In this document: one piece after another, positions 1 to 22,770 of the stretch
Numbering within the stretch: the first letter of the stretch is position 1
Layout: the number at the start of each line of letters is the position of its first letter
Virus record (IMG/VR): IMGVR_UViG_2740892213_000014
Source: a virus
Taxonomy: Duplodnaviria > Heunggongvirae > Uroviricota > Caudoviricetes
Strand: one strand, 5' to 3'
Length of the DNA stretch: 25,754 nt
Notes under the pieces: generated by a model
What the model was told of the DNA's origin: nothing
What the model saw: the letters and a program-made list of their open reading frames with translations, nothing else
The model's database searches: none
Position numbers and translations under genes: made by a program

Positions 1-993
1 CTAATCGATGGACAGTTTATGGACACTTTCAGCCAGCGGATTAAAGTTGATCGCGTCCAGTAAAAAGTCCGGCGAAAAATGAGCGTACGTCATTGTTTGC
101 TGAATCGTTGCGTGCCCCAGGATTCGTTGCAACGTAACAATATTTCCGCCATTCATCATAAAGTGTGTGGCAAATGTATGACGCATGACATGCGTAGCCT
201 GCCCCTTCGGCAAATCCGGTTTCACCTCCTGAAGAATCTCCCGGAACTTCAGATAATCAACCTGATACAATAACCCCGTTCGACGGGTTTTAATCAGAGG
301 CACGACCGAATCCGCCACAGGAACCGAACGGGATTTTCCGTTTTTGGTGTTAAAGAACGTCACCCGGTTGCCAACGATATGCTCTCCACGTAGTTCCGAT
401 GCTTCACTCCATCGGGCACCAGTAGAAAGACACAGAATGGCAACACGACGCGCATCACCCTCCAGTCGCTCAAGAAGCCGTTCAATCTCATCATCAGAAA
501 GAAAGGCCATCTCTGTGTTCTGAACTTTCAGTTTTCGTATACCGCGTACAGGGTTCGCGTTGTGAAAGACCTCAGCTTCAATCAGCACCGTGAACATGGT
601 AGACAGTACGCATAAGTCACGATTAATACTGGACGGCATTAATCCGGCCTGTAATTTCTCTGACCGATATTCAAGCATAAATTTTCGCGTCATCTGACTG
701 GCGCGAGGATCTCCCATTTCACGAACAACCTTCCCTAGCCTAACCCTGTAGCTATCCCCGTAAGCCTGATTACGCCCATCAAGCATCCACCACGCATCAA
801 GCAGCTCTGATAATCGCCGCTGATCAGCTGGCTTAGCCTGCCATGGCTTGTCATGAAAGTTCTGTAACACATACTTCTCAAACTCCTGAGCCTTTGATTT
901 CAGGGCAAAGATTTTTCGAATCCGCTTTCCTTCCGCCCCCTGCGGTCTGACATCGACCTGATAACGTCCGTCTTTGAGTTGCTTAATCGACAT
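1..993 (-). CDS. int: Phage tyrosine integrase (P2-type site-specific recombinase); stop codon at 1-3
   Basis: ORF track 1..1008 translation has tyrosine-recombinase C-terminal signature (…HVMRHTFATHF…LGHATIQQTMTYAH…). Start placed at ATG 993 (MSIKQ…) because the track start at 1008 is TTG, and a GGAGGGG Shine-Dalgarno lies just upstream of 993. Confidence 0.9.
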   Translation of the reverse strand: MSIKQLKDGRYQVDVRPQGAEGKRIRKIFALKSKAQEFEKYVLQNFHDKPWQAKPADQRRLSELLDAWWMLDGRNQAYGDSYRVRLGKVVREMGDPRASQMTRKFMLEYRSEKLQAGLMPSSINRDLCVLSTMFTVLIEAEVFHNANPVRGIRKLKVQNTEMAFLSDDEIERLLERLEGDARRVAILCLSTGARWSEASELRGEHIVGNRVTFFNTKNGKSRSVPVADSVVPLIKTRRTGLLYQVDYLKFREILQEVKPDLPKGQATHVMRHTFATHFMMNGGNIVTLQRILGHATIQQTMTYAHFSPDFLLDAINFNPLAESVHKLSID

Positions 994-1062
994 GATTAGC
1001 CCCTCCAACGGATAAATTAACTAAACACTCCTTGCGATATGTAATTCGCTCAATGTGTAGAG

Positions 1063-1404
1063 TCAGCCAACATTGCGGCCTGATCGGGGTGATTTTTGGG
1101 TAATACCGATTGAAACCTGATCGCCCTCCGACTGAATAGATCCATCAAGAGAGAGAGCCGGAGCAATCTGCCCGGCGACAGGTAGCGTCTTATCTTTTAT
1201 TAGCCACAGCATGTATTTTTCAAAGCGATCGACTTGCAGAACCGCCTCAACGATTTTTGCTCTAGCGTTCTTTTGCCCCGATTCGTAATTCCTTATGGTT
1301 GCCAAAGACAACCCAGTAATATCCGCAAACTGCTTTTGTGTTAACCCTTCCGCCTTACGTATCTGACGTAACTTTTTTGCGTAGTCTATTGACAAGATAA
1401 CCAT
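1063..1404 (-). CDS. C: Immunity repressor, P2 C-like (HTH)
   Basis: Start moved to internal ATG at 1404 (MVILSIDYAKKL…). HTH segment LTQKQFADITGLSLATIRNYESGQ and C-terminal GQIAPAL motif recalled from the P2 C repressor family. Adjacent to int and divergent from the cox-position gene. Confidence 0.75.
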   Translation of the reverse strand: MVILSIDYAKKLRQIRKAEGLTQKQFADITGLSLATIRNYESGQKNARAKIVEAVLQVDRFEKYMLWLIKDKTLPVAGQIAPALSLDGSIQSEGDQVSIGITQKSPRSGRNVG

Positions 1405-1447
1405 TTGAGTATTAACCTCTCGCACAAAGATAACCTTTTGGTTATCT
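1389..1447. promoter_or_regulatory. Immunity switch region: -35-like TTGACA (1389-1394) abutting half-site AGATAACC (1395-1402); perfect 20-bp palindrome AGATAACC-TTTT-GGTTATCT (1428-1447)
   Basis: Read directly from sequence. Three copies of an 8-mer lie between divergent repressor and cox-position genes, consistent with repressor/Cox operator sites in a P2/186-type switch. Confidence 0.45.
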
Positions 1448-1508
1448 TTACAAGCCAAAACAAACCATCACAAGGCGCGACAAGCGCACCAACGCAAGAG
1501 GATAACAA

Positions 1509-2030
1509 ATGCGGGACTTCATTGCCGATAAAGAGTTATCTGACCACCAACCACTTCAGGAAAGTGACGCACTCAGCGGATCCATTGATGCCGCCAACGA
1601 CGACGAGCACGAAGAAAACAAGAAAAAGCGTTCCTACAAAAAAGGAGCGACTTTGCGGCTGGATGGTCCGATCGCCGGGCTTTGCTCTCTGGAAAAAGGC
1701 GCGGCATATATTGGGCTAACAAAATCTGCACTGCGCGTAGCCATTCATCGCGGTCAAATGCCGGGACACAAGACGCGCACAAACCCGGAAGATGAAAACT
1801 CAGACGGAGTATGGTGGTTTAACGCCAAAGAGTGGGACAAGTTGGCTGATGAGCTACCAGAGCACGAGCCCCCAGAATGGCACAACTGGAAAAGTTACTG
1901 GACGTATGACCGCCAGAAAAGGAAGTTCTCTCCAGCTAATAAAGAAGACTGCCAGACCATTAACGGTAAGCGAGTTTATACAGGCAGAAGCTCAAAACTG
2001 GACCAACTCAGAAACAACAGAGGCAACTAA
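1509..2030 (+). CDS. Cox-position protein with excisionase/AlpA-like HTH, 173 aa (unusually long)
   Basis: AGAGGA RBS before ATG 1509. Central segment AAYIGLTKSALRVAIHRGQMPGHK resembles the Xis/AlpA-type HTH. Acidic N-terminal stretch and W-rich C-terminal part have no obvious P2 Cox equivalent. Confidence 0.55.
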   Translation: MRDFIADKELSDHQPLQESDALSGSIDAANDDEHEENKKKRSYKKGATLRLDGPIAGLCSLEKGAAYIGLTKSALRVAIHRGQMPGHKTRTNPEDENSDGVWWFNAKEWDKLADELPEHEPPEWHNWKSYWTYDRQKRKFSPANKEDCQTINGKRVYTGRSSKLDQLRNNRGN

Positions 2031-2034
2031 TCGT

Positions 2035-2457
2035 ATGAAAACAAACACGTCAGATTTCACAATAACTATTTCAAAAAATGACCAAGCATTAATTGATAAC
2101 CTGAAATACCTTGCGGAAAAACATAATAACGGACGAATTGCAATTAATTTACGACACATCACAGGAGTAACAATTGTAACCAGTTACTGGCATCTATATC
2201 TAATCGCTAAATCAGTACTTGAAAACAAAGATTCTGTTGTCAATGGAAGAGATATAGATACTCTTCCTGCACAAATCAAACCGATAGCCTATCAATTGCG
2301 TAATCGTTTTAAAAATGAAGGTGGGATTATATTTGACTTTCCCGCAGCTGTAGCCGTGAGCTTCTCTCGGGAGGATATACTTCACTCATTTCGTTTTGCT
2401 CTATCAGGTGACGAGACATTATGGCAGCTAGAAGATGCCGGGAGCAGCCCGGCATAA
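2035..2457 (+). CDS. Hypothetical protein, 140 aa, AT-rich moron
   Basis: Start moved from track 1792 to ATG 2035 (MKTNTSDF…), just after the stop of the previous gene. Upstream part of the track ORF overlaps the previous gene out of frame. Visibly AT-rich codon usage relative to flanks. Confidence 0.5.
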   Translation: MKTNTSDFTITISKNDQALIDNLKYLAEKHNNGRIAINLRHITGVTIVTSYWHLYLIAKSVLENKDSVVNGRDIDTLPAQIKPIAYQLRNRFKNEGGIIFDFPAAVAVSFSREDILHSFRFALSGDETLWQLEDAGSSPA

Positions 2458-2463
2458 ATCAAA

Positions 2464-2655
2464 TTAAAAATCAACCAGTTGTGTGACAGGTGGGTATTTA
2501 CGCTGAATTTTGTCAGTTACTAACGCCAGTAATATATGAATCTCTGCGTTTAATGCGTCTTTATCACCCGTCGTTTTTACCCTGGGAGGGTTAATGTTAT
2601 CCAGAGCAGCACTAAGTTCACTCAACAAATTAACAACTTTTTTATCTTCTGACAT
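2464..2655 (-). CDS. Hypothetical small protein, 63 aa, convergent with the 140-aa gene
   Basis: ORF track. AAGAGG Shine-Dalgarno on minus strand upstream of ATG 2655. 3' ends of the two genes are 6 nt apart. Confidence 0.45.
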   Translation of the reverse strand: MSEDKKVVNLLSELSAALDNINPPRVKTTGDKDALNAEIHILLALVTDKIQRKYPPVTQLVDF

Positions 2656-2792
2656 GAAAACCTCTTAACAATTTAATTAAACATAAGCCAGGACCTGAAC
2701 CGGCCAGTCCAAGTCCTAGACACACAAAAAAAATACCACAAATCAATACAAGGTGACACGAGTACACCTTACCGAAGGTACAGAGTTTTAAT

Positions 2793-3143
2793 ATGAAACT
2801 ACAGCGCAATTCTTCACAGCAGCGCTTCCGCAACGGTGCGGAACGCCATGCTAACCGTTTCGCTACCAGTGCATCACGTAGCAACTCTCGCTACAGCCTG
2901 AGCGAAACACACGCAACGCCGGATGGCTACCCAGTAAAACAAATTGGTGAACACACTTGGCTGATTGAAAAAGCAGGAATCGTGGTTCACAGATGCCAGC
3001 GCAACCCATTTACCGGAAACCGCATTTTTGCACTGAGCAACGGCGACAATCAGTTCGGGCAGGATTTCACATTGTACGAAGCACTTCGCACAGTTGATCG
3101 TCTGCTTCGCGGACAAAGTTTTATTAAACAGGCTGATTTATAA
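2793..3143 (+). CDS. Hypothetical early protein, 116 aa
   Basis: ORF track; same orientation as early operon; weak RBS. Confidence 0.5.
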   Translation: MKLQRNSSQQRFRNGAERHANRFATSASRSNSRYSLSETHATPDGYPVKQIGEHTWLIEKAGIVVHRCQRNPFTGNRIFALSNGDNQFGQDFTLYEALRTVDRLLRGQSFIKQADL

Positions 3144-3153
3144 CAGGTGCTTT

Positions 3154-3432
3154 ATGACCAAAGAGCATGCACAAGGTGTATTTATTCGTTTTATTGATTT
3201 TCGCGGTGAACTGTTATTACGCGCATCAGCTATTGATGGAGTCGTTCCATCCGAAAAAAATGCAGCTACTTACGTTTATCTGAACGGCACGCGCCTGACC
3301 GTAGAACTTCCGTACCAGACTGTACACGAAATCATTAGCGAAGCGGAAAAAGCACGTAAGACTAATGGCGATGAACCCTATATCGAAATTATTTGTATGG
3401 ATTCAGAAGCAGAAATTCAGAAAGCAGATTAA
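3154..3432 (+). CDS. Hypothetical early protein, 92 aa
   Basis: Start moved to ATG 3154 (MTKEHAQGVF…) with AGGTG RBS at 3144-3148. Confidence 0.55.
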   Translation: MTKEHAQGVFIRFIDFRGELLLRASAIDGVVPSEKNAATYVYLNGTRLTVELPYQTVHEIISEAEKARKTNGDEPYIEIICMDSEAEIQKAD

Positions 3433-3443
3433 AGGGCGTTGCG

Positions 3444-3686
3444 ATGGGCAAAGAATATAAAACTCTCATTAATAAAGCACTTGAGCGTTTTTATTTTCGC
3501 TTAAGTGCATCAGGCGCTCATGCTGAACGTGCAGCCCGTGACTCATTGACCAGGGCAATCCGGAGTCTGTATGACGTGGCTTTTTACGCTGATGATCTGG
3601 ATGCACTTAACGAACTTTCCGAGCTGATCTGTGCCGCAGAATGCGGGGAACATATTGAACCGTATAAGCTGGGGAATATTGCATGA
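3444..3686 (+). CDS. Hypothetical early protein, 80 aa
   Basis: Start moved to ATG 3444 (MGKEYKTL…); AAAGGG upstream. Confidence 0.5.
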   Translation: MGKEYKTLINKALERFYFRLSASGAHAERAARDSLTRAIRSLYDVAFYADDLDALNELSELICAAECGEHIEPYKLGNIA

Positions 3687-3796
3687 GTATATTTATCTCA
3701 TGGCTTGTTCTGATTATTTCGGTGGTCTGCGCCATTGGGATTATGCGAATTATTAATTCAGTGAAAAAGATCGAGCGTTTTTTCTCTGATGAATAA
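3683..3796 (+). CDS. Small hydrophobic ORF, 37 aa (MSIFISWLVLIISVVCAIGIMRIINSVKKIERFFSDE), predicted single transmembrane helix
   Basis: Translated by hand; not in ORF track (below its size cutoff). ATG 3683 overlaps TGA of upstream gene (ATGA coupling). Confidence 0.35.
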   Translation: MSIFISWLVLIISVVCAIGIMRIINSVKKIERFFSDE

Positions 3797-3888
3797 CGAT
3801 ACAAATAAAACATCAAATTAAATAAGAAAACGTGAAAACCATCCGTATTAACGGAGGTATTCGCACACGTAAATAATGGAGATATAAA

Positions 3889-4305
3889 ATGAACGCAAAA
3901 GAAGAAGGCATTATCAACACATTAAAAAAAATATCAGAAGCGGAAGATGAAATGGCTAAAGATGCCGTGAAGCGTAGCCAACATATGGCAGCACTTCACG
4001 CACTGACCATCGCAAAAATCACCGCTGACGCAGCCAAAATTATTGAGGAACAGGGCAAAGAAATCGACACTCTTAAAACACAGTCAACAGTTGCAGCCAT
4101 GAATCCGTCCAGCATTGGACGCCGCATTTACATTCTTGGTTCGGCAATAATGACGCAATACACCATTATTGCCGAACTGCACGGCAAATACCTGATAACG
4201 CCTTACCACACAAAGGAGTCAGAGCTTCTGACAAATCTCCGCCTGATAGAACGCTCTCAAGCTGTATTCATTGATGACGCGCAACGTGCCGTATTTAACG
4301 CATAG
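3889..4305 (+). CDS. Hypothetical early protein, 138 aa
   Basis: ORF track; GGAG RBS at 3876-3879. Confidence 0.55.
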   Translation: MNAKEEGIINTLKKISEAEDEMAKDAVKRSQHMAALHALTIAKITADAAKIIEEQGKEIDTLKTQSTVAAMNPSSIGRRIYILGSAIMTQYTIIAELHGKYLITPYHTKESELLTNLRLIERSQAVFIDDAQRAVFNA

Positions 4306-4328
4306 GGTTACTGGACAAAGGGGGCGCA

Positions 4329-4532
4329 ATGGCAATTAAGCATTTTCCCGTCGTTCGCTTTACCTCCAGAGGGCGCGAATACGAGGTCGACGAACGCCTG
4401 ATTACCACTATCGACAAACATCGTTCGGAAAAGGATGCACACCACATCTACCTCACTGACGGCACTTACTTCTGCGCCACCAACGTGGCGCGGGTGAATC
4501 TTATCCGACAGGTACAGGAGCCACGCAGATGA
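4329..4532 (+). CDS. Hypothetical early protein, 67 aa
   Basis: ORF track; AAGGGGG RBS upstream of ATG 4329. Confidence 0.5.
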   Translation: MAIKHFPVVRFTSRGREYEVDERLITTIDKHRSEKDAHHIYLTDGTYFCATNVARVNLIRQVQEPRR

Positions 4533-6088: not shown

Positions 6089-8911
6089 ATGACGGCAGAG
6101 TACATCAGGGACTGGCAACAACCGCGCCACGCAGTGGGACGTGAAGGAACGGGGATCCCCGTTCCTGAATCCGCGCTTTCCTCCTGGCTGGATGCCTACC
6201 GGGCAGAGAACGAGCGCCGCCAGGAAATGGCTGATGCGGCGTTCTCCGCCACGCCGCTGGGCAACCTGATTAATAAAAGCCTGGATGCACAGGAAAAACA
6301 GGACAAAACCATCACACTGGCAGGAGACGCCAGAAAACAGGTACGCGGTGCGGTGGATGAAGCCATGGCCTCGCTGCGCCTGCTGCCGTCCTATCTGCGC
6401 GATCCGCTTATTCGCCACCTCTCCTTCCTGCGCAAAAAACAGGAAGCCGATCGCCGGAAAGGCAAAAAGAGCTGGCAGGCTGAACGCTACGCGCGCGGAA
6501 CCCTGCGCAAAATATTCGAACGTCTGGACCGCACCGACCACCGCTGGCTGACACCGGGTTATCGCTCCCTTGCCGGACGCGAACGCCTGGATGATTTGCT
6601 TTACCTGCCGCAGCTCAACAAGCACCAGATACAGACGCTGGCCACCATGACGGCGGCGATGTTCAGCAGCACCTTCGAAAAACTCTGCGATGGCTTTGGC
6701 GCGACTGATGGCGAGCTGACCATGGATGTAACGCTGAAGGCGTATCAGATGCTGGCCCGCATGGCGTTACACCTGCACGCCATGCCTCCGCATTATGACG
6801 CACTGACAACAGACAAAGACCGGAGGAACGAACCGGACACGGAGCTGCTGCCGGGCGCAATCCTTCGCCTGACCTGTGCGGAATGGTGGAAACGCAAACT
6901 GTGGCTGTTACGTTGCGAGTGGCGGGAAGAACAACTCCGCGCCGCCTGTCTGGTTTCCAGAAAAACATCGCCCTATCTGAGCCAGGACGCGTTAAGCGAG
7001 TTTCGCGCACAGCGCGAGAAAACACGCGATTTCCTGAAAAGTTTCATGCTGGAAAACGAAGACGGGTTCACGATTGATCTCGAGACGGTGTATTACGCGG
7101 GAGTAAGTAACCCGGTTCACCGTAAGGCAGAAATGATGGCCACCATGAAGGGGCTGGAACTTCTGGCCGAAGCCCGTGGCGACAAAGCGGTGTTTCTGAC
7201 TGTCACCTGCCCGTCAAAATACCACGCCACAACAGAGAACGGTCATCCGAATCCCAAATGGAACGGGGCCACCATGCGCGACTCCAGCGATTACCTGGTT
7301 AACACGTTTTTTGCGGCGGTCCGCAAGAAACTGAACCGCGACGGCCTGCGCTGGTATGGCATCCGCACGGTGGAGCCTCACCATGACGGCACCGTGCACT
7401 GGCATATGATGGTCTTTGCTCATCCGGAAGAAATCGACACCATTGTGTCCCACACCCGCGATATTGCCATTCAGGAAGATCGTCACGAGCTGGGTGATGA
7501 TATTACCCCACGCTTTAAGGCGGAGTACGTCGACGGCTCAAAAGGCACACCGACCAGCTACATCGCCACCTACATCGGGAAAAACCTGGACAGCCGTGCC
7601 GTGGATGGCATCGACCCGAAAACGGGCAAGCCACGCGTTGACCACGAAACCGGAAAATCAATGGCCGAGAGCGTGGAACGCGCCATCGGCTGGGCGCGCC
7701 TTCACCGGGTCCGCCAGTTCCAGTTCTTTGGTATCCCCTCCCGTCAGGTGTGGCGTGAACTGCGCCGCCTTGCCAGCCAGATGGCTCGCAACCCGGAAGG
7801 ACCGCAACGGCTGAAGGATGACGCAATGGACGCGGTTCTTGCTGCCGCTGATGCCGGATGTTTTGCCACCTACATAGAGAAACAGGGCGGCGTACTTGTT
7901 CCACGCAAGGACTACCTGATTCGCACCGCCTACGACCTCGCCGATGAGCTGAACGATTACGGTGAACAGAGCGTACAGATTTACGGGATCTGGTCACCGC
8001 TCATCGGGGAGTCTTCCCGCGTATGCACGCATCCGGACAACTGGAAGCTGGTAAGACGCAAACCGGAAGCGGAAGACAGCGCCCGCGAAAATGGTTTTGA
8101 CCTTCAGGGCGGCCCTGCCGCACCTTGGACTCGTGGCAATAACTGTCCCCGTGTACAGGAAACGGACAACAACGGGACAGAACAGCCGGAAGAACGGCCA
8201 GCACCGTGGCCGCAGCTTCCTGACGGCGTTGACGTGAACGAATGGATGCGCTCACTGAAACGGCACGAACGCCGGGCGCTGATGCGTTCGCTGCGTGACA
8301 AACAGGCAAAAAACAGCAGTGATGAAATGCAGAGCTGGACACAGAGCCGCAAACAGCAGCGGCCTTTGCCTGATAACCACGAATTACTCGCTAAAGAATG
8401 GCGGGAATCTGCCGAATCTCTCGGCCTGCATATCGGTGAACAGCAGATGCAGCACCTGTTACGGGGCGGCAGCCTGTACGTTGACGGCAGCATCATTGCA
8501 CCGCAGGGATTTGAAATTGTACGCAAACCGGATACCCGCCCGGACAGCCGAATCACGCAGCTCTGGCAGCGCCTGAGCCGTAATCACGGCGTAAGCAGCA
8601 CGGAGATCCGCCATAACCCGGTCGCCAGCTATCTGGAACAGCTGGGGGCATCAGACCCCGAAGCCGCCGCACGTCTGGCATCCACACTTCAGCAGGACCA
8701 GAACACCATGAACCCCCCCGTTACCGTGCTTTCTGACATGCTGCGCGCCATCCGCGACGCAGAGCACGCACAGAGAATCAGTGAAACCACTGAACGTGCC
8801 CGCCGCAAAGCAGACCTGCTGCGGGGTGGCCTGACCAGTGGAAACAAAAAACAGACAGAAACGGGATTCACAAATCCCGTAAATGAGCAAAAAACGCGCC
8901 GCGATATATGA
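6089..8911 (+). CDS. A: Rolling-circle replication initiator / replication endonuclease, P2 gpA family, 940 aa
   Basis: HUH-type motif VHWHMMVF and paired catalytic tyrosines in SYIATYIGKN (Y-x3-Y) are typical of gpA/phiX174-A-type initiators. Position between early genes and portal matches P2 synteny. Protein is longer than I recall for P2 A, with a C-terminal extension. Confidence 0.88.
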   Translation: MTAEYIRDWQQPRHAVGREGTGIPVPESALSSWLDAYRAENERRQEMADAAFSATPLGNLINKSLDAQEKQDKTITLAGDARKQVRGAVDEAMASLRLLPSYLRDPLIRHLSFLRKKQEADRRKGKKSWQAERYARGTLRKIFERLDRTDHRWLTPGYRSLAGRERLDDLLYLPQLNKHQIQTLATMTAAMFSSTFEKLCDGFGATDGELTMDVTLKAYQMLARMALHLHAMPPHYDALTTDKDRRNEPDTELLPGAILRLTCAEWWKRKLWLLRCEWREEQLRAACLVSRKTSPYLSQDALSEFRAQREKTRDFLKSFMLENEDGFTIDLETVYYAGVSNPVHRKAEMMATMKGLELLAEARGDKAVFLTVTCPSKYHATTENGHPNPKWNGATMRDSSDYLVNTFFAAVRKKLNRDGLRWYGIRTVEPHHDGTVHWHMMVFAHPEEIDTIVSHTRDIAIQEDRHELGDDITPRFKAEYVDGSKGTPTSYIATYIGKNLDSRAVDGIDPKTGKPRVDHETGKSMAESVERAIGWARLHRVRQFQFFGIPSRQVWRELRRLASQMARNPEGPQRLKDDAMDAVLAAADAGCFATYIEKQGGVLVPRKDYLIRTAYDLADELNDYGEQSVQIYGIWSPLIGESSRVCTHPDNWKLVRRKPEAEDSARENGFDLQGGPAAPWTRGNNCPRVQETDNNGTEQPEERPAPWPQLPDGVDVNEWMRSLKRHERRALMRSLRDKQAKNSSDEMQSWTQSRKQQRPLPDNHELLAKEWRESAESLGLHIGEQQMQHLLRGGSLYVDGSIIAPQGFEIVRKPDTRPDSRITQLWQRLSRNHGVSSTEIRHNPVASYLEQLGASDPEAAARLASTLQQDQNTMNPPVTVLSDMLRAIRDAEHAQRISETTERARRKADLLRGGLTSGNKKQTETGFTNPVNEQKTRRDI

Positions 8912-8987: not shown

Positions 8988-9947
8988 ATGAAAATTTGTA
9001 TCGACGACGGCTCCACCAACATCAAGCTGGCATGGACTGAGAATGGCGAACGCCGCAACGCCATCAGCCCGAACAGCTTCAAGTCGGAATGGTCTGCGCC
9101 GTTCGGTGGCATGCAGCCCGCGAACTACATGCTTGATGGCGTGCGCTATGGTTTTGATCCGGTCAGCGATCGCTTTGTCCAGACGACCGACACGCAATAC
9201 CAGTACAGCGATGTGAATGTAATCGCCATTCATCACGCGCTGGTCAAATCAGGCATCACGCCACAGGAGGTGGATGTGGTTGTCACCCTGCCACTGAGCG
9301 AGTATTTCGACACAAACGCACAGCCGGACATGGCCAACATCAACCGCAAAAAAGCGAACGTTATGCGCCCGGTGGAGTACCAGAACGGCGAAGCATTCAC
9401 TATCCGTAACGTGCGGGTTATGCCTGAATCCATTCCGGCTGGCTTTAAAGCACTGGCTGACATGAGTCCGTTTGAATCCCTGCTGATTGTGGATTTAGGC
9501 GGAACCACGCTGGATGTGGCAAAGGTTCAGGGGCAACTGGCAGGTATCAGCCAGGTGTTTTGCGATCCACACGTAGGCGTCTCCCTGATGGCCGGTGCCG
9601 TGCTGTCGGTGATGGCCGCTAACGGTATGCGTACCAGTCACCACATCGCCAATACCATTATCGAACATCGCCATGATGAAGCCTGGTTGCGCCAACACAT
9701 CCACAATGACGCGCATTACGCCAGCCTGATGGCGGTTATTCGTGAAAAGGAAGAAACACTGAAACAACGCGTGATCCGCGCGCTGGCGGGTTTTTCGGGT
9801 TACGGGCGGGTGATGGTTGTCGGTGGCGGGGCGGAGATTGTGGCACCCGCTATCCGCGAAGCCTGCGGAGTTAATGCGACTTTCATCGCGGACGGGGTGC
9901 CACAGTTTGCTCTGGTTAATGGGCTGTACGCAATGGACAAGGAGTAA
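8988..9947 (+). CDS. parM: Actin-like segregation ATPase, ParM/StbA family, 319 aa
   Basis: Long-range similarity to plasmid R1 ParM as I recall it (N-terminal IDDGSTNIKL, YSDVNV…HHAL, VMPESIPAG, DLGGTTLD, VGGGAE). AAGGAA RBS upstream. Confidence 0.8.
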   Translation: MKICIDDGSTNIKLAWTENGERRNAISPNSFKSEWSAPFGGMQPANYMLDGVRYGFDPVSDRFVQTTDTQYQYSDVNVIAIHHALVKSGITPQEVDVVVTLPLSEYFDTNAQPDMANINRKKANVMRPVEYQNGEAFTIRNVRVMPESIPAGFKALADMSPFESLLIVDLGGTTLDVAKVQGQLAGISQVFCDPHVGVSLMAGAVLSVMAANGMRTSHHIANTIIEHRHDEAWLRQHIHNDAHYASLMAVIREKEETLKQRVIRALAGFSGYGRVMVVGGGAEIVAPAIREACGVNATFIADGVPQFALVNGLYAMDKE

Positions 9948-15335: not shown

Positions 15336-16388
15336 ATGAATCTGGTGATGTCAGATATTACCCGCAACAAGCTGGGTTGCTATATGGCGCAGCAGGCGTC
15401 GCTTAACAATATCCCGGTTTCCGCACTGGTATCGCGATTTACCGTGGAACCCGCGGTGCAGCAACGTTTTGAAAACGCCTCAAAGGAAAGTACCGAATTT
15501 ACGAAAAGAATTAACGTGATCGGCGTGACCGACCAGAAAGGCGAAAAAATCCTCCCGGACACCACCGGGCCAATTGCGCGCACGAATAGCAGTTATGACG
15601 GCATCAAACGCCGTAACCCGAATAACGTGATCGATATGAAGTCTCGTCAGTACCAGTGCGAACAGGTGAACTACGATACCTTTATTTCGTACCCACAGCT
15701 TGATACCTGGGCGGCCCACAGCGATTTTCAGTCCCGTATCAGTACACAGATCGCCCGGCAGGTAGCGCTTGATCGCATCATGATTGGCTTTAACGGCACA
15801 TCCCACGCCTACGAGTCTGATTTTCACACCAACAAGCTGCTTCAGGACGTAAACGTGGGCTGGCTGGAGCACATCAGAACCGATGCCAGCGAGCGCGTAA
15901 TGAATGACGTGACGCTGACCTCCCGCAACATGGACAACACTGTGGCGCACGCGGGTAAGTATGCGAATGCCGATGCTCTGGTACAGGATGCGCGCTCATC
16001 CCTGCTGGATGAATGGCACAAGGAAGCTGACGACCTCGTGGTGATTATGGGGCGCAACCTGTTTAACTCGCTGCGTCTGCCCGTGCTGAACAGCATCAGC
16101 GGCCAGAATCCCAATGCGGAATTACTTGCCGGGCAGCTCATCCTGTCATCGCGCACCATTGGCGGGCTGGGCGTGTTCCTTGCGCCGTTCTTCCCGGATG
16201 CAACGATGCTTATCACCTCGTTCAACAACCTGTCGATTTACTGGCAGAAAGGTTCAATGCGTCGCCTGATGAAAGACGAGCCGGAATACAACCGCATCGC
16301 CACCTACCAGTCCATCAATGACGCTTATGTCGTTGAAGACTATGGCAAGTGCGCGATGATCACTGGCCTGAAGTTCGCCGACAGCTAA
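15336..16388 (+). CDS. N: Major capsid protein, P2 gpN family, 350 aa
   Basis: ORF track; AAGGAG RBS; size and synteny. Confidence 0.88.
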   Translation: MNLVMSDITRNKLGCYMAQQASLNNIPVSALVSRFTVEPAVQQRFENASKESTEFTKRINVIGVTDQKGEKILPDTTGPIARTNSSYDGIKRRNPNNVIDMKSRQYQCEQVNYDTFISYPQLDTWAAHSDFQSRISTQIARQVALDRIMIGFNGTSHAYESDFHTNKLLQDVNVGWLEHIRTDASERVMNDVTLTSRNMDNTVAHAGKYANADALVQDARSSLLDEWHKEADDLVVIMGRNLFNSLRLPVLNSISGQNPNAELLAGQLILSSRTIGGLGVFLAPFFPDATMLITSFNNLSIYWQKGSMRRLMKDEPEYNRIATYQSINDAYVVEDYGKCAMITGLKFADS

Positions 16389-17250: not shown

Positions 17251-17321
17251 CGGGCGGCGTGCGCGGTGTTCCGGTTTGACTCCGTGACCGTTTACACCGC
17301 GCACCCACCGCCCGATTTTTT
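17251..17321 (+). terminator. Large imperfect hairpin (CGGGCGG…GCGCGGTGT / ACACCGCGC…CCGCCCG) followed by TTTTTT, between M and L
   Basis: Read directly; possible attenuator inside the late operon. Confidence 0.35.
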
Positions 17322-17335
17322 CAGGAGTGAACCCC

Positions 17336-17830
17336 ATGAGTATGGTTGCCAGAACTAACCCCGGCCCCGCAGAGGACGACATCACCGACACCGATGATGG
17401 CGATACCCGTATTTCAGCGGGTGCATTCTGGCCGGATATTGTGCTGCGCGAGCTGCGTCTGGCGGTACGACTGCCGGGCCGCGTGACCACCTCCCGCCTG
17501 CTGCATACCGCCACCGGGGCCATAGCACACGTTACCCGCGAGCTGGAAGCATGGCAGCAGGAACAACAGGCGGCTGGCTATCAGACGCTGGCCGATGTTC
17601 CGGCCCCTGTAATTAACGGAGAAAGCGTCAATCTCTGGCACTGGCGCAATGCTGTTTATACCGCCACACGCGCCCTGATTCTGGAGCGTTACCGCGATGC
17701 GGACACAACGGACAAGGGCGACCGCCGGGCGGACGCACTGGATATACAGACATCGGATTTGTGGCGCGATGTGAGCTGGGCCATCTCTGACATTCTGGGA
17801 CGACCGCGAATGTTTGCGGAGCTGTGCTGA
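17336..17830 (+). CDS. L: Head completion/stabilisation protein, P2 gpL family
   Basis: Start at first ATG 17336, 8 nt after AGGAG; size and synteny. Confidence 0.82.
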   Translation: MSMVARTNPGPAEDDITDTDDGDTRISAGAFWPDIVLRELRLAVRLPGRVTTSRLLHTATGAIAHVTRELEAWQQEQQAAGYQTLADVPAPVINGESVNLWHWRNAVYTATRALILERYRDADTTDKGDRRADALDIQTSDLWRDVSWAISDILGRPRMFAELC

Positions 17831-18030
17831 TGAAAGTGAAGGCACTGGAAGGCGACACCGTGGATTCGCTCTGTTTCCGGTACTACGGCACGACACAGGG
17901 CGTCACCGAAAAGGTGCTGGATGCCAACCCCGGACTCTGTCAGCAGGTATTTCTGGACGCCGGGCAGGAAGTGGAGATGCCGGAGCCGGAGAAGAAGAAA
18001 CGAGAAATGATTCAGTTGTGGGGGGAGTAG
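17830..18030 (+). CDS. X: Tail protein X, P2 gpX family, 66 aa
   Basis: Start ATG 17830 overlaps L stop (TGATG). Sequence MKVKALEGDTVDSLCFRYYG… resembles P2 X as recalled. Confidence 0.75.
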   Translation: MKVKALEGDTVDSLCFRYYGTTQGVTEKVLDANPGLCQQVFLDAGQEVEMPEPEKKKREMIQLWGE

Positions 18031-18032
18031 CA

Positions 18033-18356
18033 GTGAGCACCATTCAAACAGGGATCACAGAGCAGGTTATTGCGTGGCTCTTTGACCACCTGCCAACGGT
18101 GTATGCAGTAGGCGCGGCGGTCAGCATTTCCGCGCTGATGAGTCTTTATGACGGACGAACACTGGTTCAGACCGTAACGGGATCGCTGGCGTGCGGCGTT
18201 CTTGCCATGGCCGTGGCCGGGTCGCTGCGCTTCTTCGGGATCCCTGAGGATGCAGTGACGTTTTTTGGTGCCTCAATCGGTTTTATGGGCGCAGAGAAAG
18301 CACGCGACAAGGTTATTGCAATATTTGATCGCAGGGTGAAGGAGAGGAACGAATGA
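18033..18356 (+). CDS. Y: Holin-like membrane protein, 107 aa (P2 Y position)
   Basis: GTG start at 18033 preceded by GGGGGAG; hydrophobic segments; stop overlaps endolysin start (ATGA). Confidence 0.6.
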   Translation: MSTIQTGITEQVIAWLFDHLPTVYAVGAAVSISALMSLYDGRTLVQTVTGSLACGVLAMAVAGSLRFFGIPEDAVTFFGASIGFMGAEKARDKVIAIFDRRVKERNE

Positions 18357-18745
18357 GCAACACATTTAAATTCAGCAGCCGGAGCGAAAAGAATTTGCAG
18401 GGTGTAAATCCTGATCTGGTGAAAGTGACCCGACGGGCGCTGGAAATCTCGGAAGTGGATTTTGGTATCACCGAAGGATTGCGCAGTCGTTATCGTCAGA
18501 AGCAGCTCGTGACCACAGGCAAGAGCCAGACCATGAACAGTCGCCATCTCACAGGGCATGCCGTGGATGTTGTGGCTTATGTCGGCAACCAGGTGTCATG
18601 GGAATGGCCGCTGTACGAAAAAATCGCAGCAGCATTCAGACAGGCCAGCCAGGAACTGAATATTCCGGTGGAATGGGGCGGCGACTGGAAGACCCTGAAA
18701 GACGGACCGCATTTTCAGTTACCACACGGAGCCTATCCGGCATGA
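18353..18745 (+). CDS. Endolysin, peptidase M15 family (L-alanyl-D-glutamate peptidase type)
   Basis: Motif SRHLTGHAVDV matches the zinc-binding signature of M15 peptidases; sits in the lysis cassette between holin and spanins. Confidence 0.8.
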   Translation: MSNTFKFSSRSEKNLQGVNPDLVKVTRRALEISEVDFGITEGLRSRYRQKQLVTTGKSQTMNSRHLTGHAVDVVAYVGNQVSWEWPLYEKIAAAFRQASQELNIPVEWGGDWKTLKDGPHFQLPHGAYPA

Positions 18746-19137
18746 AGCTCTGGCCCACGCTTGGCGTCGCTTTCCTTCTGATTACATCCATGCGTCTGTC
18801 GTGGTCGCTGGGCCGGGAGAACGCCAGAAACGAAGCGCAGGCCAGCACCCTGAAAAGTACCGTCGACACACTGAATATCATCAGCGCCGGGGTACAGGAT
18901 ATGCAGCAGGTGCTGGCTCAGCTCCGCGCGGAAAATCAGCAACGCAATCAGGACGGAGAGGTAAGACGTGAACAGCTACGCAACGATATTGCAAAAGATG
19001 AATGCGCCCACGCTTTGCCTGACGCTCGTTTTACTGACAGGTTGCGCAGGCACGCAGAACGCGCCAGGGCCAGCGCCGTCAGTCCGGCTTATACCGCAGA
19101 CGCTGACCATGCCGGTAACGCCTCCCCCCTTCCCTGA
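18742..19137 (+). CDS. lysB: i-spanin (Rz / LysB-like), 131 aa
   Basis: Start moved to ATG 18742 (MKLWPTLGVAFLLITSM…), overlapping endolysin stop (ATGA). N-terminal TM helix followed by coiled-coil-like Q/R-rich region. Confidence 0.7.
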   Translation: MKLWPTLGVAFLLITSMRLSWSLGRENARNEAQASTLKSTVDTLNIISAGVQDMQQVLAQLRAENQQRNQDGEVRREQLRNDIAKDECAHALPDARFTDRLRRHAERARASAVSPAYTADADHAGNASPLP

Positions 19138-19279
19138 CCCACCCACATGGGGAAACCTCGGAATATGGGGCGACCGCCTTCTGGATGCACTGGAAACCTG
19201 TAACGCGGATAAACGGGCCATTGCTGAACTGGATAAGAGAATAGCCGAACTGACACACCAGACGGGAGTAACACAATGA
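18998..19279 (+). CDS. lysC: o-spanin (Rz1 / LysC-like) lipoprotein, starts embedded in lysB in a different frame
   Basis: Start moved to ATG 18998 (MNAPTLCLTLVLLTGCAG…); lipobox LLTGC; proline-rich mature part. Confidence 0.65.
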   Translation: MNAPTLCLTLVLLTGCAGTQNAPGPAPSVRLIPQTLTMPVTPPPFPDPPTWGNLGIWGDRLLDALETCNADKRAIAELDKRIAELTHQTGVTQ

Positions 19280-21073
19280 CCAGTAAGAACTTTGCACTGA
19301 TTACAGCCATGACACAGGCTGAACTGACTCAAAAGGTGAATGAACATCTTGCGAAAGGGTGGCATCTTCAGGGGGAGACGCGGGTTGCCTACGAACCCGG
19401 CACCCCGTGGTATCTAATGCAGGCAATGGTGGCCGATGGCACTACAGACATCTCACCTGATTCCCCCCAGCACGGCAGCGTGCCGGAGTGGTATTACGTG
19501 GTGGTACTTGCTGGTCAATCCAATGCCATGTCATATGGTGAGGGAATGCCGCTGCCGGATTCTTACGATGCGCCCCACCCACGCATTAAGCAACTGGCCC
19601 GTCGCAACACAGTGACTCCCGGTGGTAAAGCATGCGCATTTAACGACATCATTCCGGCAGACCACTGCCTGCATGATGTTCAGGATATGAGCGCACTGAA
19701 TCACCCGAATGCAGACCTGAGCAAAGGGCAGTATGGCTGTGTCGGACAGGGCTTGCATATTGCCAAACGCCTGTTGCCTTACATTCCACAGAATGCCGGG
19801 ATTTTACTGGTTCCATGCTGTCGTGGTGGTTCGGCATTCACCCAGGGCGCGGAGGGGACATTCAGCGAGTCCACAGGAGCCAGTCAGGATTCGGCTCGCT
19901 GGGGTGTGGGTAAACCTTTATATCAGGACCTGATTTTGCGCACGAAGGCCGCATTGCAGAAAAACCCAAAAAACATGCTGCTGGCCGTATGCTGGATGCA
20001 GGGCGAATTTGACATGAGCGCCGCTACGTACTCACAGCAACCTCCGCTGTTTACGGCCATGCTGAAACAGTTTCGTGCGGACATTACCGAGTTTAACACG
20101 CAGTGTCATGGAGGCAGAGCGGCAAGTGTGCCATGGATTTGTGGTGACACGACGTATTACTGGAAAAACACCTACGGCACGCAGTACGACACCATTTACG
20201 GGGCGTACAAAAACAGGGAGAGCGACAACGTTTTCTTTGTGCCGTTCCTGACCGATGGTAGTGGCAACAATACCTCCACCAACGCACCAACGGAAGATCC
20301 GGATGCTGCAAGTGAGGGATATTACGGTTCGGCATCCCGAACGAACAAAAACTGGGTATCATCAAATCGCCAGACGCATTTCAGCTCATGGGCGCGTCGT
20401 GGCATTATTCCCGATCGTATGGCAACCGCTATTCTGAACGTAGCCGGTCGCACCTTAGCCTTCATCAGTGGTAAGGCACCGGAAATCAAACCCTCGCCCG
20501 GCGGCGACACGCCATCGGGGCCGTCTGAAGATGCATCCGTACGCACAATCTCCCTGTTGCCGACAGCCGGAGATGCTGCTGCGCAGGGCTGGAGCATTAA
20601 GAATGGCGGAATTCAGTTGTCAGAGGGTGTATTTAAGATCACCAAGCAGAGCAATAAAACCTGGTCCCTGACGCGCCCGGTGGATGACGCAGTCTCCCTG
20701 CTGACACGGGGTGGCAGACTGAGCTGTAAGTTTCGACTGTCAGGCGCACTGACCAACAATCAGTTCGGTCTGGGAATTTATCTGTATACCGATGTAGCGT
20801 TACCTGACGTCGTGGCGATGACCGGGACTGGTAACCCGTTCCTGATGTCGTTCTTCACCCNNNNNNNNNNNNNNNNNNNNNNNNNNNNNNNNNNNNNGCA
20901 GTGCCACGGTTACTCCGAAACTGAATGGAGTGGCTGGCCCGGCATTCCAGGTCATAAAAGACAGTCTGACACTGGGGCTGAATGCGCTGACGTTAACTGA
21001 TATCACTAAAAATGCCGCGTACGGCGTCGATATCGGCAGCCTGGTGCTGGAAATCAATAATCCCGCAGCATAA
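19276..21073 (+). CDS. NanS-p-like sialate O-acetylesterase (N-terminal DUF1737-like segment plus SASA/SGNH esterase domain); interrupted by N-gap, C-terminus re-framed
   Basis: N-terminus MTSKNFALITAMTQAELTQKVNEHLAKGWHLQGE and motif VVLAGQSNAMSYGEG (GQSN esterase block) as recalled for NanS-p of E. coli prophages. ATG 19276 overlaps lysC stop (ATGA). After the gap, frame 3 reads …SATVTPKLNGVAGPAFQVIKDSLTLGLNALTLTDITKNAAYGVDIGSLVLEINNPAA and stops at 21071-21073, just before the RBS of R. Confidence 0.65.
20861..20897. other. Run of 37 N (assembly gap or masked bases) inside the esterase gene
   Basis: Read directly; reading frame across it is undetermined. Confidence 0.99.
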
Positions 21074-21096
21074 GGAAGAGCAGGAGAGCAAAACAG

Positions 21097-21564
21097 ATGC
21101 TTAAGACAAACAGTCTGCGAGAGTCCATGCTTCATGGGTGTCGGTGGTGCCAGGCTAATCCCGAGAAATTCACCATTTTCGTGGAGAGCGGCAACATTGA
21201 AACGACCGGAGAAGCGCCCTCGTTTGTTTACCGCTATCAGATGGTGATGTTTGTCATGGATTACGCCGGAGAGCTGGACGACCTCACGCTGCCGCTGCTG
21301 GCGTGGTTATCCGAAAATCAGCCACAGTTGTTGCTCAATCCGGAGCGTAATCAGGACATCAAATTTTCTGCCGTTATCAATGACGATGACAGCGCCGATC
21401 TCCTGTTTACGCTCCCCCTGCGGGAACGCGTTCGCATCACGCGCAACAGTCAGGGCACACCGCAGGCAGAACACCTGCCGGAGCCAAAACCCCGTCTGCC
21501 TTCTTCCGAAGGCGACTGGTCGCATGTATTCCAGGATGTGACGTGGGGTGAAAGCGATGGATAA
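21097..21564 (+). CDS. R: Tail completion protein, P2 gpR family, 155 aa
   Basis: ORF track; AGGAGAG RBS; size and synteny. Confidence 0.82.
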   Translation: MLKTNSLRESMLHGCRWCQANPEKFTIFVESGNIETTGEAPSFVYRYQMVMFVMDYAGELDDLTLPLLAWLSENQPQLLLNPERNQDIKFSAVINDDDSADLLFTLPLRERVRITRNSQGTPQAEHLPEPKPRLPSSEGDWSHVFQDVTWGESDG

Positions 21565-22192
21565 GGCATTCACCCGCGTGGATGAAACCTTTGAGGCTAT
21601 CCGCGACAGCCTGAATCAGCAGGCCATCAATAACATCGCCAGAAAGCTGGCACAGGATTTACGTCGCGCCCAGCAGGCACGTATCCGGTCACAAAAAGCG
21701 CCGGACGGGACCGAATGGACACCACGCAGACGCCGCGTAACCCGGATACAGGAGCGCATTCGCTTTATCTGGAATAACGAAGCACGCACGCTGAAAAACT
21801 GGCATCACGACACAGGGAAATACGGGCGAACCATTACCGGGTGGGATGAGGATAAAAACAATATCCGCACGTTTTACCGGGATGACATCGACCGTTTTCT
21901 GGAAATACGCACCCGGCGCATCAACCAGGACAGCACAAAGCGCGTCCCCATGTTCGTAAAACTGCGCACCGCCCGCTACCTGAAAGCCCGTGCAGATGCC
22001 TCCGGTGTGACGGTGGGTTACAGCGGCGTGGCCGCACGTATTGCACGCGTTCATCAGTTCGGTGAGCGCGATCAGGTTGCGCCGGGCATTTTCACCGATT
22101 ACCCGGTACGTGAGCTGTTGGGTATCAGCCAGGCAGATGAGCGCCTGATTTATAACACGGTGCTGGGCCGGATTGCGGAGGCTGTACGGTGA
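21557..22192 (+). CDS. S: Tail completion / virion morphogenesis protein, P2 gpS family
   Basis: Start at ATG 21557 overlapping R 3' end by 8 nt; synteny. Confidence 0.75.
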   Translation: MDKAFTRVDETFEAIRDSLNQQAINNIARKLAQDLRRAQQARIRSQKAPDGTEWTPRRRRVTRIQERIRFIWNNEARTLKNWHHDTGKYGRTITGWDEDKNNIRTFYRDDIDRFLEIRTRRINQDSTKRVPMFVKLRTARYLKARADASGVTVGYSGVAARIARVHQFGERDQVAPGIFTDYPVRELLGISQADERLIYNTVLGRIAEAVR

Positions 22193-22770
22193 GCGCAGAA
22201 CTCATGCGACTGCTGAGCAACATCATCCGCACCGGGATCATCTCTGAAGTTGATGAGAAGTCCTGGCGCGTGCGCGTTCGCAGCGGCGAACTGGAAACAG
22301 GCTGGTTGCGCTGGAACACCACGCGCGCGGGAGCCTTCAATGTGTGGCTGCCGCCATCACCAGGCGAACAGGTGGTAATTGCCTGCATTGGCGGCAACCC
22401 GGAAACCGCCATGATAATTGGCAGCCTGTGGAGTGATGCCAGTCCGGCCCCCGGCAAAAGCCTGAAAGAAATCGTGGTCAGCGCGCCGGATGGCGCGGTG
22501 TTCCGCTACGACGCAGACGCTGGCGCACTGAGCGCCAGCGGCATGAAAACAGCCACCCTGCAGGCATCCGTCAGCGTGACACTGGATACGCCCGTCGTGG
22601 AATGCACAAACCTTCTGAGAACGGCGACGCTTGACGTCACAAAAGGGGGAAAGATGAGCGGCAATATCACGCACAGCGGCGGCAATTTCACCTCAAACGG
22701 CATTACCGTGCATACGCATAAGCACGGTGGCGTTAAAGGTGGCAGCGATTCGACAGGAGGCCCGCAGTGA
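22189..22770 (+). CDS. V: Baseplate central spike protein, P2 gpV family
   Basis: GTG start overlapping S stop (GTGA). N-terminus MSAELMRLLSNIIRTGII and C-terminal region HSGGNFTSNGITVHTHKHGG resemble P2 V as recalled. Confidence 0.85.
   Translation: MSAELMRLLSNIIRTGIISEVDEKSWRVRVRSGELETGWLRWNTTRAGAFNVWLPPSPGEQVVIACIGGNPETAMIIGSLWSDASPAPGKSLKEIVVSAPDGAVFRYDADAGALSASGMKTATLQASVSVTLDTPVVECTNLLRTATLDVTKGGKMSGNITHSGGNFTSNGITVHTHKHGGVKGGSDSTGGPQ

Follow-up and report, generated by a model that had tools for sequence, protein, structure and literature searches.

A NanS-p-family esterase homologue in the late operon of P2-like prophages of Escherichia coli, combining a P2-specific DUF1737 domain with exchangeable esterase-lectin cargo

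The window analysed here (the whole 25,754-nucleotide stretch of IMG/VR record IMGVR_UViG_2740892213_000014) is a P2-like prophage of the P88-like type (Xuanwuvirus) in Escherichia coli of the sequence type 131 (ST131) type, and is 100% identical at the DNA level to a prophage of ST131 strains such as EC958. Between the spanin gene lysC and the tail-completion gene gpR, it carries a gene (Table 1) whose product is, to judge from its domain architecture and active site, a three-domain sialate O-acetylesterase homologue of the NanS-p family; the DNA on both sides of this gene is approximately 96% identical to phage P88 and other members of Xuanwuvirus. Pfam searches identify PF08410 (DUF1737), PF03629 (SASA, residues 75-271, E = 1.3e-11 with the protein as read in the window) and PF20350 (DUF6645, residues 476-586, E = 2.1e-19 with the full 625-amino acid protein), all over their cut-offs in the full protein. 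In a search against solved structures, residues 69-388 match NanS/YjhS (3PT5, phmmer E = 1.7e-125) and residues 430-622 match the NanS-p C-terminal domain (6YP6, E = 1.7e-29). The active-site blocks listed for 3PT5 are GQSNA, RGGSAF, MQGEFD and R-x-S-H-F-S (PMC10792757), and all four are present, the fourth reading RQTHFS. The protein belongs to phrog_143 of PHROGs (E = 1.7e-279), the function of which is not annotated, and has no match in NCBIfam. The initial annotation, made from the sequence without database searches, had called the gene NanS-p-like by its DUF1737-like N-terminus and a GQSN esterase block, and had proposed a search for a SASA or SGNH domain; the three-domain architecture and the complete set of catalytic blocks bear this out.

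In the window, the open reading frame (ORF) apparently stops at 21000, and its last 57 codons lie in another frame, extending to 21073, because a run of 37 N has replaced 117 nucleotides of the gene. Closed genomes contain an uninterrupted ORF of 1878 nucleotides, closed by a TAA that corresponds to window positions 21071-21073, exactly where the initial annotation had ended the gene; the matched lysC-gene-gpR region is 2781 nucleotides long in closed genomes versus 2701 in the window query. The intact 625-amino acid protein of EC958 (RefSeq WP_000202148.1, named only 'DUF6645 domain-containing protein') differs from that of the window at one residue, closed genomes being otherwise identical here, and the exact protein is present on at least 999 contigs. 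The early end of the ORF in the window could be taken to mark a decaying pseudogene, broken at 20861-21000 into a disrupted, non-functional remnant; with the break located at the run of N and the 117 nucleotides present in closed genomes, this reading was ruled out, and the probability left to it is negligible.

Comparison domain by domain shows that the protein is a mosaic of a DUF1737 'anchor' of a clade confined to P2-like phages, diverging in step with the structural genes, and a swapped esterase-lectin 'cargo'. Relative to the alleles of phage 434 and of Shiga toxin 1 (Stx1) phages, the DUF1737 domain is 28-35% identical, the esterase domain 84-85% and the C-terminal domain 86-87%; relative to the Stx2a-phage type, the esterase is 67% and the C-terminal domain 36% identical. 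Linker 1 is the breakpoint of similarity to the lambdoid alleles, the DNA similarity beginning at approximately position 19482. The lambdoid DUF1737 domains are mutually 60-86% identical even where their cargo domains are only 35-71% identical, and DUF1737 identity is 57-96% inside the P2 clade but only 19-41% to the lambdoid versions. All P2-like versions have in common a hairpin motif, EPGxP[WF]YLMQ (EPGxP[WF]YLMQA in the clade of the window protein), of which the clade-specific EPGTPWY of the window (19393-19413) lies on the hairpin between the second and third beta-strands of DUF1737.

A search of IMG/VR with the N-terminal domain found 33 loci, all in E. coli, and all of those inspected are P2-like, with the gene between lysC and gpR. 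These loci form two backbones, A (P88-like) and B (an unnamed lineage), the capsid protein of B being 62-63% identical to that of A and 98% identical within B. The DUF1737 domains of A and B are 57-66% identical, matching the divergence of their capsid proteins, whereas within B the esterase domains are only 63-66% identical and the C-terminal domains 30-42% identical despite the 98% identity of the capsid. A third lineage (L131) has the same arrangement, with a gpR product 57% identical to that of A and 76% identical to that of B. The gene is therefore recurrent among P2-like prophages: three diverged lineages carry a DUF1737-esterase gene at the same lysC-gpR junction, each with a DUF1737 domain of the P2-specific clade, and this is not a single convergent insertion, the initial annotation having envisaged convergent placement.

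The cargo, for its part, has been traded with lambdoid and Mu-like prophages, both recently and more than once. Among 123 full-length members of the family, 87 have a lambdoid DUF1737 N-terminus, 32 a P2-clade DUF1737, three a Mu-type and one a tail-fibre-type N-terminus, and the cargo clusters cut across these classes. The nearest lambdoid-anchored cargo is 93% identical in the esterase and 97% in the C-terminal domain to that of the window allele, and for two other P2-clade types the respective values are 98% and 100% (L029 type) and 99-100% and 98% (L034 type); for the Mu-type protein P0113 they are 95% and 100%.

The same cargo also occurs behind N-terminal modules other than DUF1737. In Mu-like prophages (L039 and L042-L044) it follows an unrelated N-terminal domain of approximately 110 amino acids without a Pfam match, and the Mu-type gene (L042:8001-10070) is located after a Gin-like invertase gene and, as happens in Stx phages, before genes for DUF1378 and DUF826. 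A protein of 917 amino acids (P0175; L040/L041, 1015-3768), seen in two metagenome assemblies, consists of a PF08400 tail-fibre N-terminal domain (E of about 1e-49), a coiled coil, a SASA esterase domain, DUF6645 and a C-terminal extension, and at a prophage end its gene adjoins one for tail-fibre assembly.

The gene lies outside the conserved P2 structural set, as the initial annotation had supposed in proposing that this junction be compared among P2-like prophages. Among 5426 closed E. coli genomes, the lysC-gene-gpR segment is found in 373 (at least 80% of the query being present), and 688 have an empty junction, that is, an uninterrupted junction of the P88 type. Sampling 80 IMG/VR loci without bias, by way of gpR, gave 50 empty junctions, 16 filled ones (all with the P2-clade N-terminus), 12 that are cut by contig ends and two hybrids. 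P88 and most of its sequenced relatives are without the esterase gene, which only three of 50,697 phage records contain; these three are P88-like, and each breaks off within the gene. N-domain relatives were not found in one-genome-per-species contigs, and an exhaustive HMMER search with the 68-amino acid N-terminal domain returned only 11 matches, mostly fragments or frameshifted copies. No paper on a P2-like context for the esterase gene was found in the literature; EC958_1029, which by locus number and identity is very probably the esterase gene of the window, has a listed identity of 82.7% to EC958_1546, a gene of a lambdoid prophage (Kakkanat et al. 2017, PMC5425062).

Two more E. coli lineages of P2-like prophages, L032-L038 and L131, apparently have no sequenced phage representative; megablast of lineage B against the 50,697 phage records gave no match, and identity between its capsid protein and those of Xuanwuvirus does not exceed 63%. 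Breaks inside the esterase gene are also seen in many draft assemblies and in three 'phage' records of GenBank (H1-H3), and the 12 IMG/VR loci that run into a contig end do so at or upstream of it. Near-identical nanS-p paralogues within one genome are the likely explanation for such recurrent assembly breaks and for chimeric contigs in draft E. coli genomes. In the two hybrid loci (L045 and L054, positions 1-4500), the left part is a late region of lambdoid type with a DUF1737 of that type; the 3' half of the gene equals the P2-like allele, and gpR comes next. Both loci were considered as true inter-prophage recombinants and rejected, the joint being present in no closed E. coli genome, and are probably repeat-induced chimeric assemblies.

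In P88, lysC runs straight into gpR, its stop codon overlapping the gpR start. When the two junctions are aligned (window 19220-19279 against positions 2900-2990 of the P88 locus L001), similarity is lost in the last 20 or so codons of lysC and regained at gpR; therefore, a separate lysC 3' end and a 23-nucleotide spacer with a GGAG before gpR come with the extra segment, and the C-terminus of the outer spanin (o-spanin) LysC belongs to the exchanged segment. The ATG of the esterase gene (19276-19278) shares bases with the TGA of lysC (19277-19279) in the sequence ATGA (19276-19279), an overlap already recognized in the initial annotation, with GGGAG 7 nucleotides upstream, and gpR, followed by the tail-completion gene gpS, begins 23 nucleotides past the esterase stop codon. 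A consensus scan of 17300-22300 for a promoter and terminator belonging to the esterase gene gave two promoter-like and six terminator-like sites, versus 2.8 and 4.2 expected from shuffled sequence, none of them suitably placed on the plus strand, and no clean late-promoter element of the P2 type (TGT-N12-ACA) was found in the gpP-gpO intergenic region. The classical criterion of a moron is an extra phage gene flanked by its own promoter and terminator; the initial annotation, which used this term, was right insofar as the gene is optional, some relatives having it and others not, but a promoter and terminator of its own were not found. The gene is better described as optional yet wired into the late operon by translational coupling to lysC than as an autonomous cassette, and from the known organisation of the P2 late operon it would be expressed only on lytic growth, at the same time as the proteins for lysis and for the virion.

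Lambdoid nanS-p genes had been described in the initial annotation as lying downstream of the lysis genes, in an equivalent position, but in the three phages checked (Stx1, Stx2 and 434) they are upstream of these genes, between Q/stx and the holin gene. A position after Q/stx and before the holin gene has likewise been described in the literature (PMC10462455). What the P2-like and lambdoid settings have in common is late transcription adjoining the lysis cassette.

The other features of the window are those of a P2-like prophage (Table 1). The longest ORF for lysC begins at 18968. Just 3' of gpA, in the variable region ahead of the portal gene, the plus strand at 8988-9947 encodes an actin-like protein for plasmid segregation, of the ParM/StbA type (PF06406, E = 2.7e-82; PF21523, E = 1.6e-67), which an integrated P2-like prophage would not usually carry. 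Near the integrase/cox end, a stretch of low GC content (2000-4300, 0.38-0.44 versus approximately 0.55 elsewhere) encodes a DUF4761 protein (2793-3143) and ORFs without a family match; PADLOC defence models gave no matches among the accessory ORFs of the window, those of the low-GC stretch included.

Table 1. Features of the window, with the domains, active-site blocks and expression signals of the putative esterase gene
Feature	Position	Strand	Remarks
Integrase	1-1008	-	First gene in the order of the window
Cox-like protein	after integrase, before gpA		
gpA replication protein	6089-8911
Portal and terminase	11.5-14.3 kb	-
P2-family capsid protein	15336-16388	+	Preceded by scaffold gene
gpM, gpL, gpX, holin, M15 endolysin, LysB, LysC, esterase gene, gpR, gpS, gpV, gpW, baseplate genes	after capsid, in this order	+
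lysB, inner spanin (i-spanin, DUF2570)	18742..19137	+	phrog_214 Rz-like spanin, E 1.7e-39; RefSeq annotation of identical EC958 locus
lysC, Rz1-like o-spanin lipoprotein	19019..19279	+	Pfam LysC, E 1.6e-13; RefSeq lysC in EC958
Coupling signals	19264..19279	+	GGGAG Shine-Dalgarno 19264-19268, then ATGA
NanS-p-family sialate O-acetylesterase homologue, whole gene	19276..21073	+	Split in window by N run
DUF1737 domain	19285..19434	+	Residues 4-53; PF08410, 29 bits vs cut-off 24; P2-like clade
Ser/Pro-rich linker 1 (DGTTDISPDSPQHG)	19438..19479	+	Predicted local distance difference test (pLDDT) low after residue 55
NanS-like SGNH/SASA esterase domain	19480..20439	+	Residues 69-388
GQSNA block	19513-19527		Residues 80-84, Ser82
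RGGSAF block	19822-19839		Residues 183-188
MQGEFD block	19996-20013		Residues 241-246
RQTHFS block	20368-20385		Residues 365-370, His368
Pro/Ser-rich linker 2 (…GKAPEIKPSPGGDTPSGPSE…)	20446..20562	+	Alignment of family members
C-terminal lectin-like jelly-roll domain (DUF6645)	20563..21061	+	Contains N run; homologous to phi24B NanS-p C-domain
37-N run	20861..20897	.	Stands for 117 nt (39 codons) of real gene; EC958 alignment
gpR tail-completion gene	21097..21564	+	Pfam P2_Phage_GpR, E 1.4e-38; own GGAG

The closest known systems are the lambdoid NanS-p proteins (933Wp42, also called Z1466, and vb_24B_21 of phi24B, also called gp84), which have the same order of DUF1737, SASA esterase and lectin-like C-terminal domain, no signal peptide, and a late-region gene adjoining the lysis cassette. 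The esterase and C-terminal domains of the window allele together are 84-87% identical to those of 434 and Stx1-phage NanS-p and up to 93-97% identical to those of other lambdoid-anchored alleles. Unlike these, the gene of the window is located in a P2-like myovirus prophage, between lysC and gpR instead of in the interval between Q/stx and the holin gene, is translationally coupled where the lambdoid genes are free-standing, and encodes a DUF1737 domain of a separate clade. No hydrophobic leader is evident at the N-terminus, which is the folded DUF1737 domain, as judged from the sequence and not by a dedicated signal-peptide predictor. NanS (YjhS, 3PT5) aligns end to end with the catalytic domain at approximately 58% identity, with the active-site blocks conserved, but the window protein adds the DUF1737 and lectin domains. 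NanS is a chromosomal, periplasmic esterase of the sialoregulon that acts on 9-O-acetyl-N-acetylneuraminic acid (9-O-acetyl-Neu5Ac), whereas the window protein is phage-encoded without an evident signal peptide. Phage nanS-p genes in general are significantly longer than nanS, with regions that nanS lacks (PMC8065619).

Hexon-centre decoration proteins (the N-terminal domain of phi24B gp84, Psu of P4 and Hoc of T4) offer a different comparison: as with these, the gene is dispensable for the phage, and the fold predicted for its DUF1737 domain fits that of gp84. P2-family capsids accept decoration at the hexon centre, P4 Psu being bound on gpN hexamers of the P2 type. Phi24B itself belongs to an unrelated phage group and has a head of triangulation number T=9, and association of the window protein with the P2-like capsid is a prediction. 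In influenza C virus, toroviruses and betacoronaviruses, the haemagglutinin-esterases join a lectin domain to an SGNH sialate O-acetylesterase displayed on the virion, and may resemble the phage enzyme in mode of action, by analogy only; they are entry machinery, whereas the sugar target of the phage enzyme would be host mucus and not the phage receptor.

The gp84 protein is reported to be an abundant virion protein of phi24B, in which a hexamer of DUF1737, described as one helix and three antiparallel strands, plugs the central pore of the capsid hexon by means of a loop tyrosine, and from which the esterase is cleaved off after release (preprint 10.64898/2026.04.10.717836). The topology of the AlphaFold2 model of residues 1-68 of the window protein (strand 4-11, helix 14-26, strands 30-40 and 43-54, that is, beta-alpha-beta-beta, with a core pLDDT of approximately 93) agrees with this description. 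Ser-Pro linkers have been proposed as processing sites; the sequences DISPDSP and KPSPGG occur in the two linkers of the window protein, the motif itself being loosely defined in the same preprint. Because the N-terminal module stays with the phage backbone while the cargo is swapped, and because alternative N-terminal modules, including one for tail-fibre attachment, are joined to the same cargo, a virion-anchored enzyme is favoured. Such a pattern fits that of tail fibres, in which a virion anchor is joined to an exchangeable working end. The best explanation, to which a probability slightly better than even is given, is an optional late enzyme of the NanS-p family in P2-like prophages, made of a DUF1737 anchor and exchangeable cargo and anchored to the virion. 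In this scheme, drawn by analogy with gp84 of phi24B, DUF1737 would oligomerise on the hexons of a P2-type capsid, and the released phage would display, at least transiently, a lectin and a sialate O-acetylesterase; the displayed module would bind reversibly to O-acetylated sialoglycans of gut mucus and edit them. Enzyme that is free, or is cleaved later, might also de-acetylate 5-N-acetyl-9-O-acetylneuraminic acid (Neu5,9Ac2), the product being consumed by surviving lysogens.

Several considerations weigh against virion anchoring. The capsid-anchor role of DUF1737 comes from one preprint, on a T=9 podovirus, and the P2-type head has a different lattice. The same lambdoid type of DUF1737 is shared by phage 434, of the genus Alegriavirus, and a Stx2 phage of the Traversvirus type, and the matching of anchor to capsid cannot be strict if the capsids of these two phages differ. 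DUF1737 clades follow phage type and their divergence parallels that of the capsid, but recombination limited by homology could give an equal pattern, and the persistence of the N-terminal domain could merely reflect the need of homologous recombination for DNA similarity. A standalone DUF1737-like protein of 62 amino acids (P0017; L132, 6098-6286), 46-49% identical to the window protein's N-terminal domain and without a precomputed Pfam hit, is encoded among small early genes near recT and not in a structural module, and no viral contigs were found for two others (P0015 and P0016), the gene context of P0015 giving no information; the standalone proteins give no support to a general structural role and are mild evidence against one. 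Foldseek with the DUF1737 model returned nothing significant (the top match being dodecin, E = 0.12), and no solved DUF1737 structure was found by sequence search. Overexpression of EC958_1029 had no effect on motility, the sole test reported (PMC5425062). The activity and location of the window protein are themselves predicted from its sequence and by analogy.

The gene may instead serve the lysogen, as the initial annotation proposed: a soluble esterase freed by the lysing fraction of the population would convert mucin Neu5,9Ac2 to Neu5Ac for its siblings, DUF1737 having no virion role and the neighbouring lysis genes only ensuring release. NanS-p proteins remove acetyl groups from both Neu5,9Ac2 and the glycans of mucin, and support growth (reviewed in PMC8065619), those of prophages of enterohaemorrhagic E. 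coli (EHEC) being active and giving growth on Neu5,9Ac2 (PMC8065619; PMC10462455); release of a protein with no signal peptide evident in its sequence requires lysis, the 688 empty junctions attest that the phage can dispense with the gene, and its carriers include ST131 and other gut and extraintestinal pathogenic E. coli (ExPEC) lineages. The absence of a detectable promoter and terminator, by which the gene falls short of the strict definition of a moron, does not favour this explanation, which also leaves unaccounted for the retention of a P2-specific DUF1737 at one junction in three lineages while the cargo turns over, the tail-fibre N-terminus of a relative, and the finding of gp84 in virions (10.64898/2026.04.10.717836). 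Host fitness thus stands as a rather unlikely rival, incomplete as an account of function, to the virion-anchored enzyme. Another suggestion, raised for NanS-p in PMC8065619, is that the enzyme acts on the bacterial surface, stripping O-acetyl groups from O-antigen or capsule (for example, O-acetylated polysialic acid) and thereby aiding adsorption or the release of progeny. The tail-fibre-fused P0175 would sit where receptor-modifying enzymes sit, but the N-terminus encoded in the window is DUF1737 and not a tail module, the esterase domain resembles NanS closely (approximately 58% identity over the aligned core, with the phmmer match already cited), and the family acts on free and mucin-bound sialic acids (PMC8065619), which together make this proposal improbable. 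A wider version of virion anchoring, in which DUF1737 is an interchangeable capsid-anchor module, the P2-like, lambdoid, Mu-like and tail-fibre versions each display, by a virion anchor of their own, one shared and rapidly exchanged cassette, and NanS-p is primarily a virion protein and not a factor for lysogen fitness, is held only tentatively, at clearly less than even probability.

What is new here is the phage context of this NanS-p-family member and the clade to which its anchor belongs; the kind of enzyme was already known. NanS-p esterases have so far been treated as metabolic helpers supplied by Shiga-toxin prophages to EHEC. P2-like prophages of ST131, a pandemic ExPEC clone, and of many other E. 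coli have the same cassette in one constant place within the late operon, joined to a P2-specific N-terminal domain; unrelated phage types have traded it at near-identity. NanS-p might decorate the virion, binding and editing mucus, or might be a public good shared among lysogens; this question becomes directly testable, P88-like phages with and without the gene providing a natural contrast in an easily induced and well-understood phage system. If DUF1737 does prove to be an interchangeable anchor, gut coliphages would carry a bacteriophage counterpart of the viral haemagglutinin-esterases for reversible attachment to O-acetylated sialomucins.

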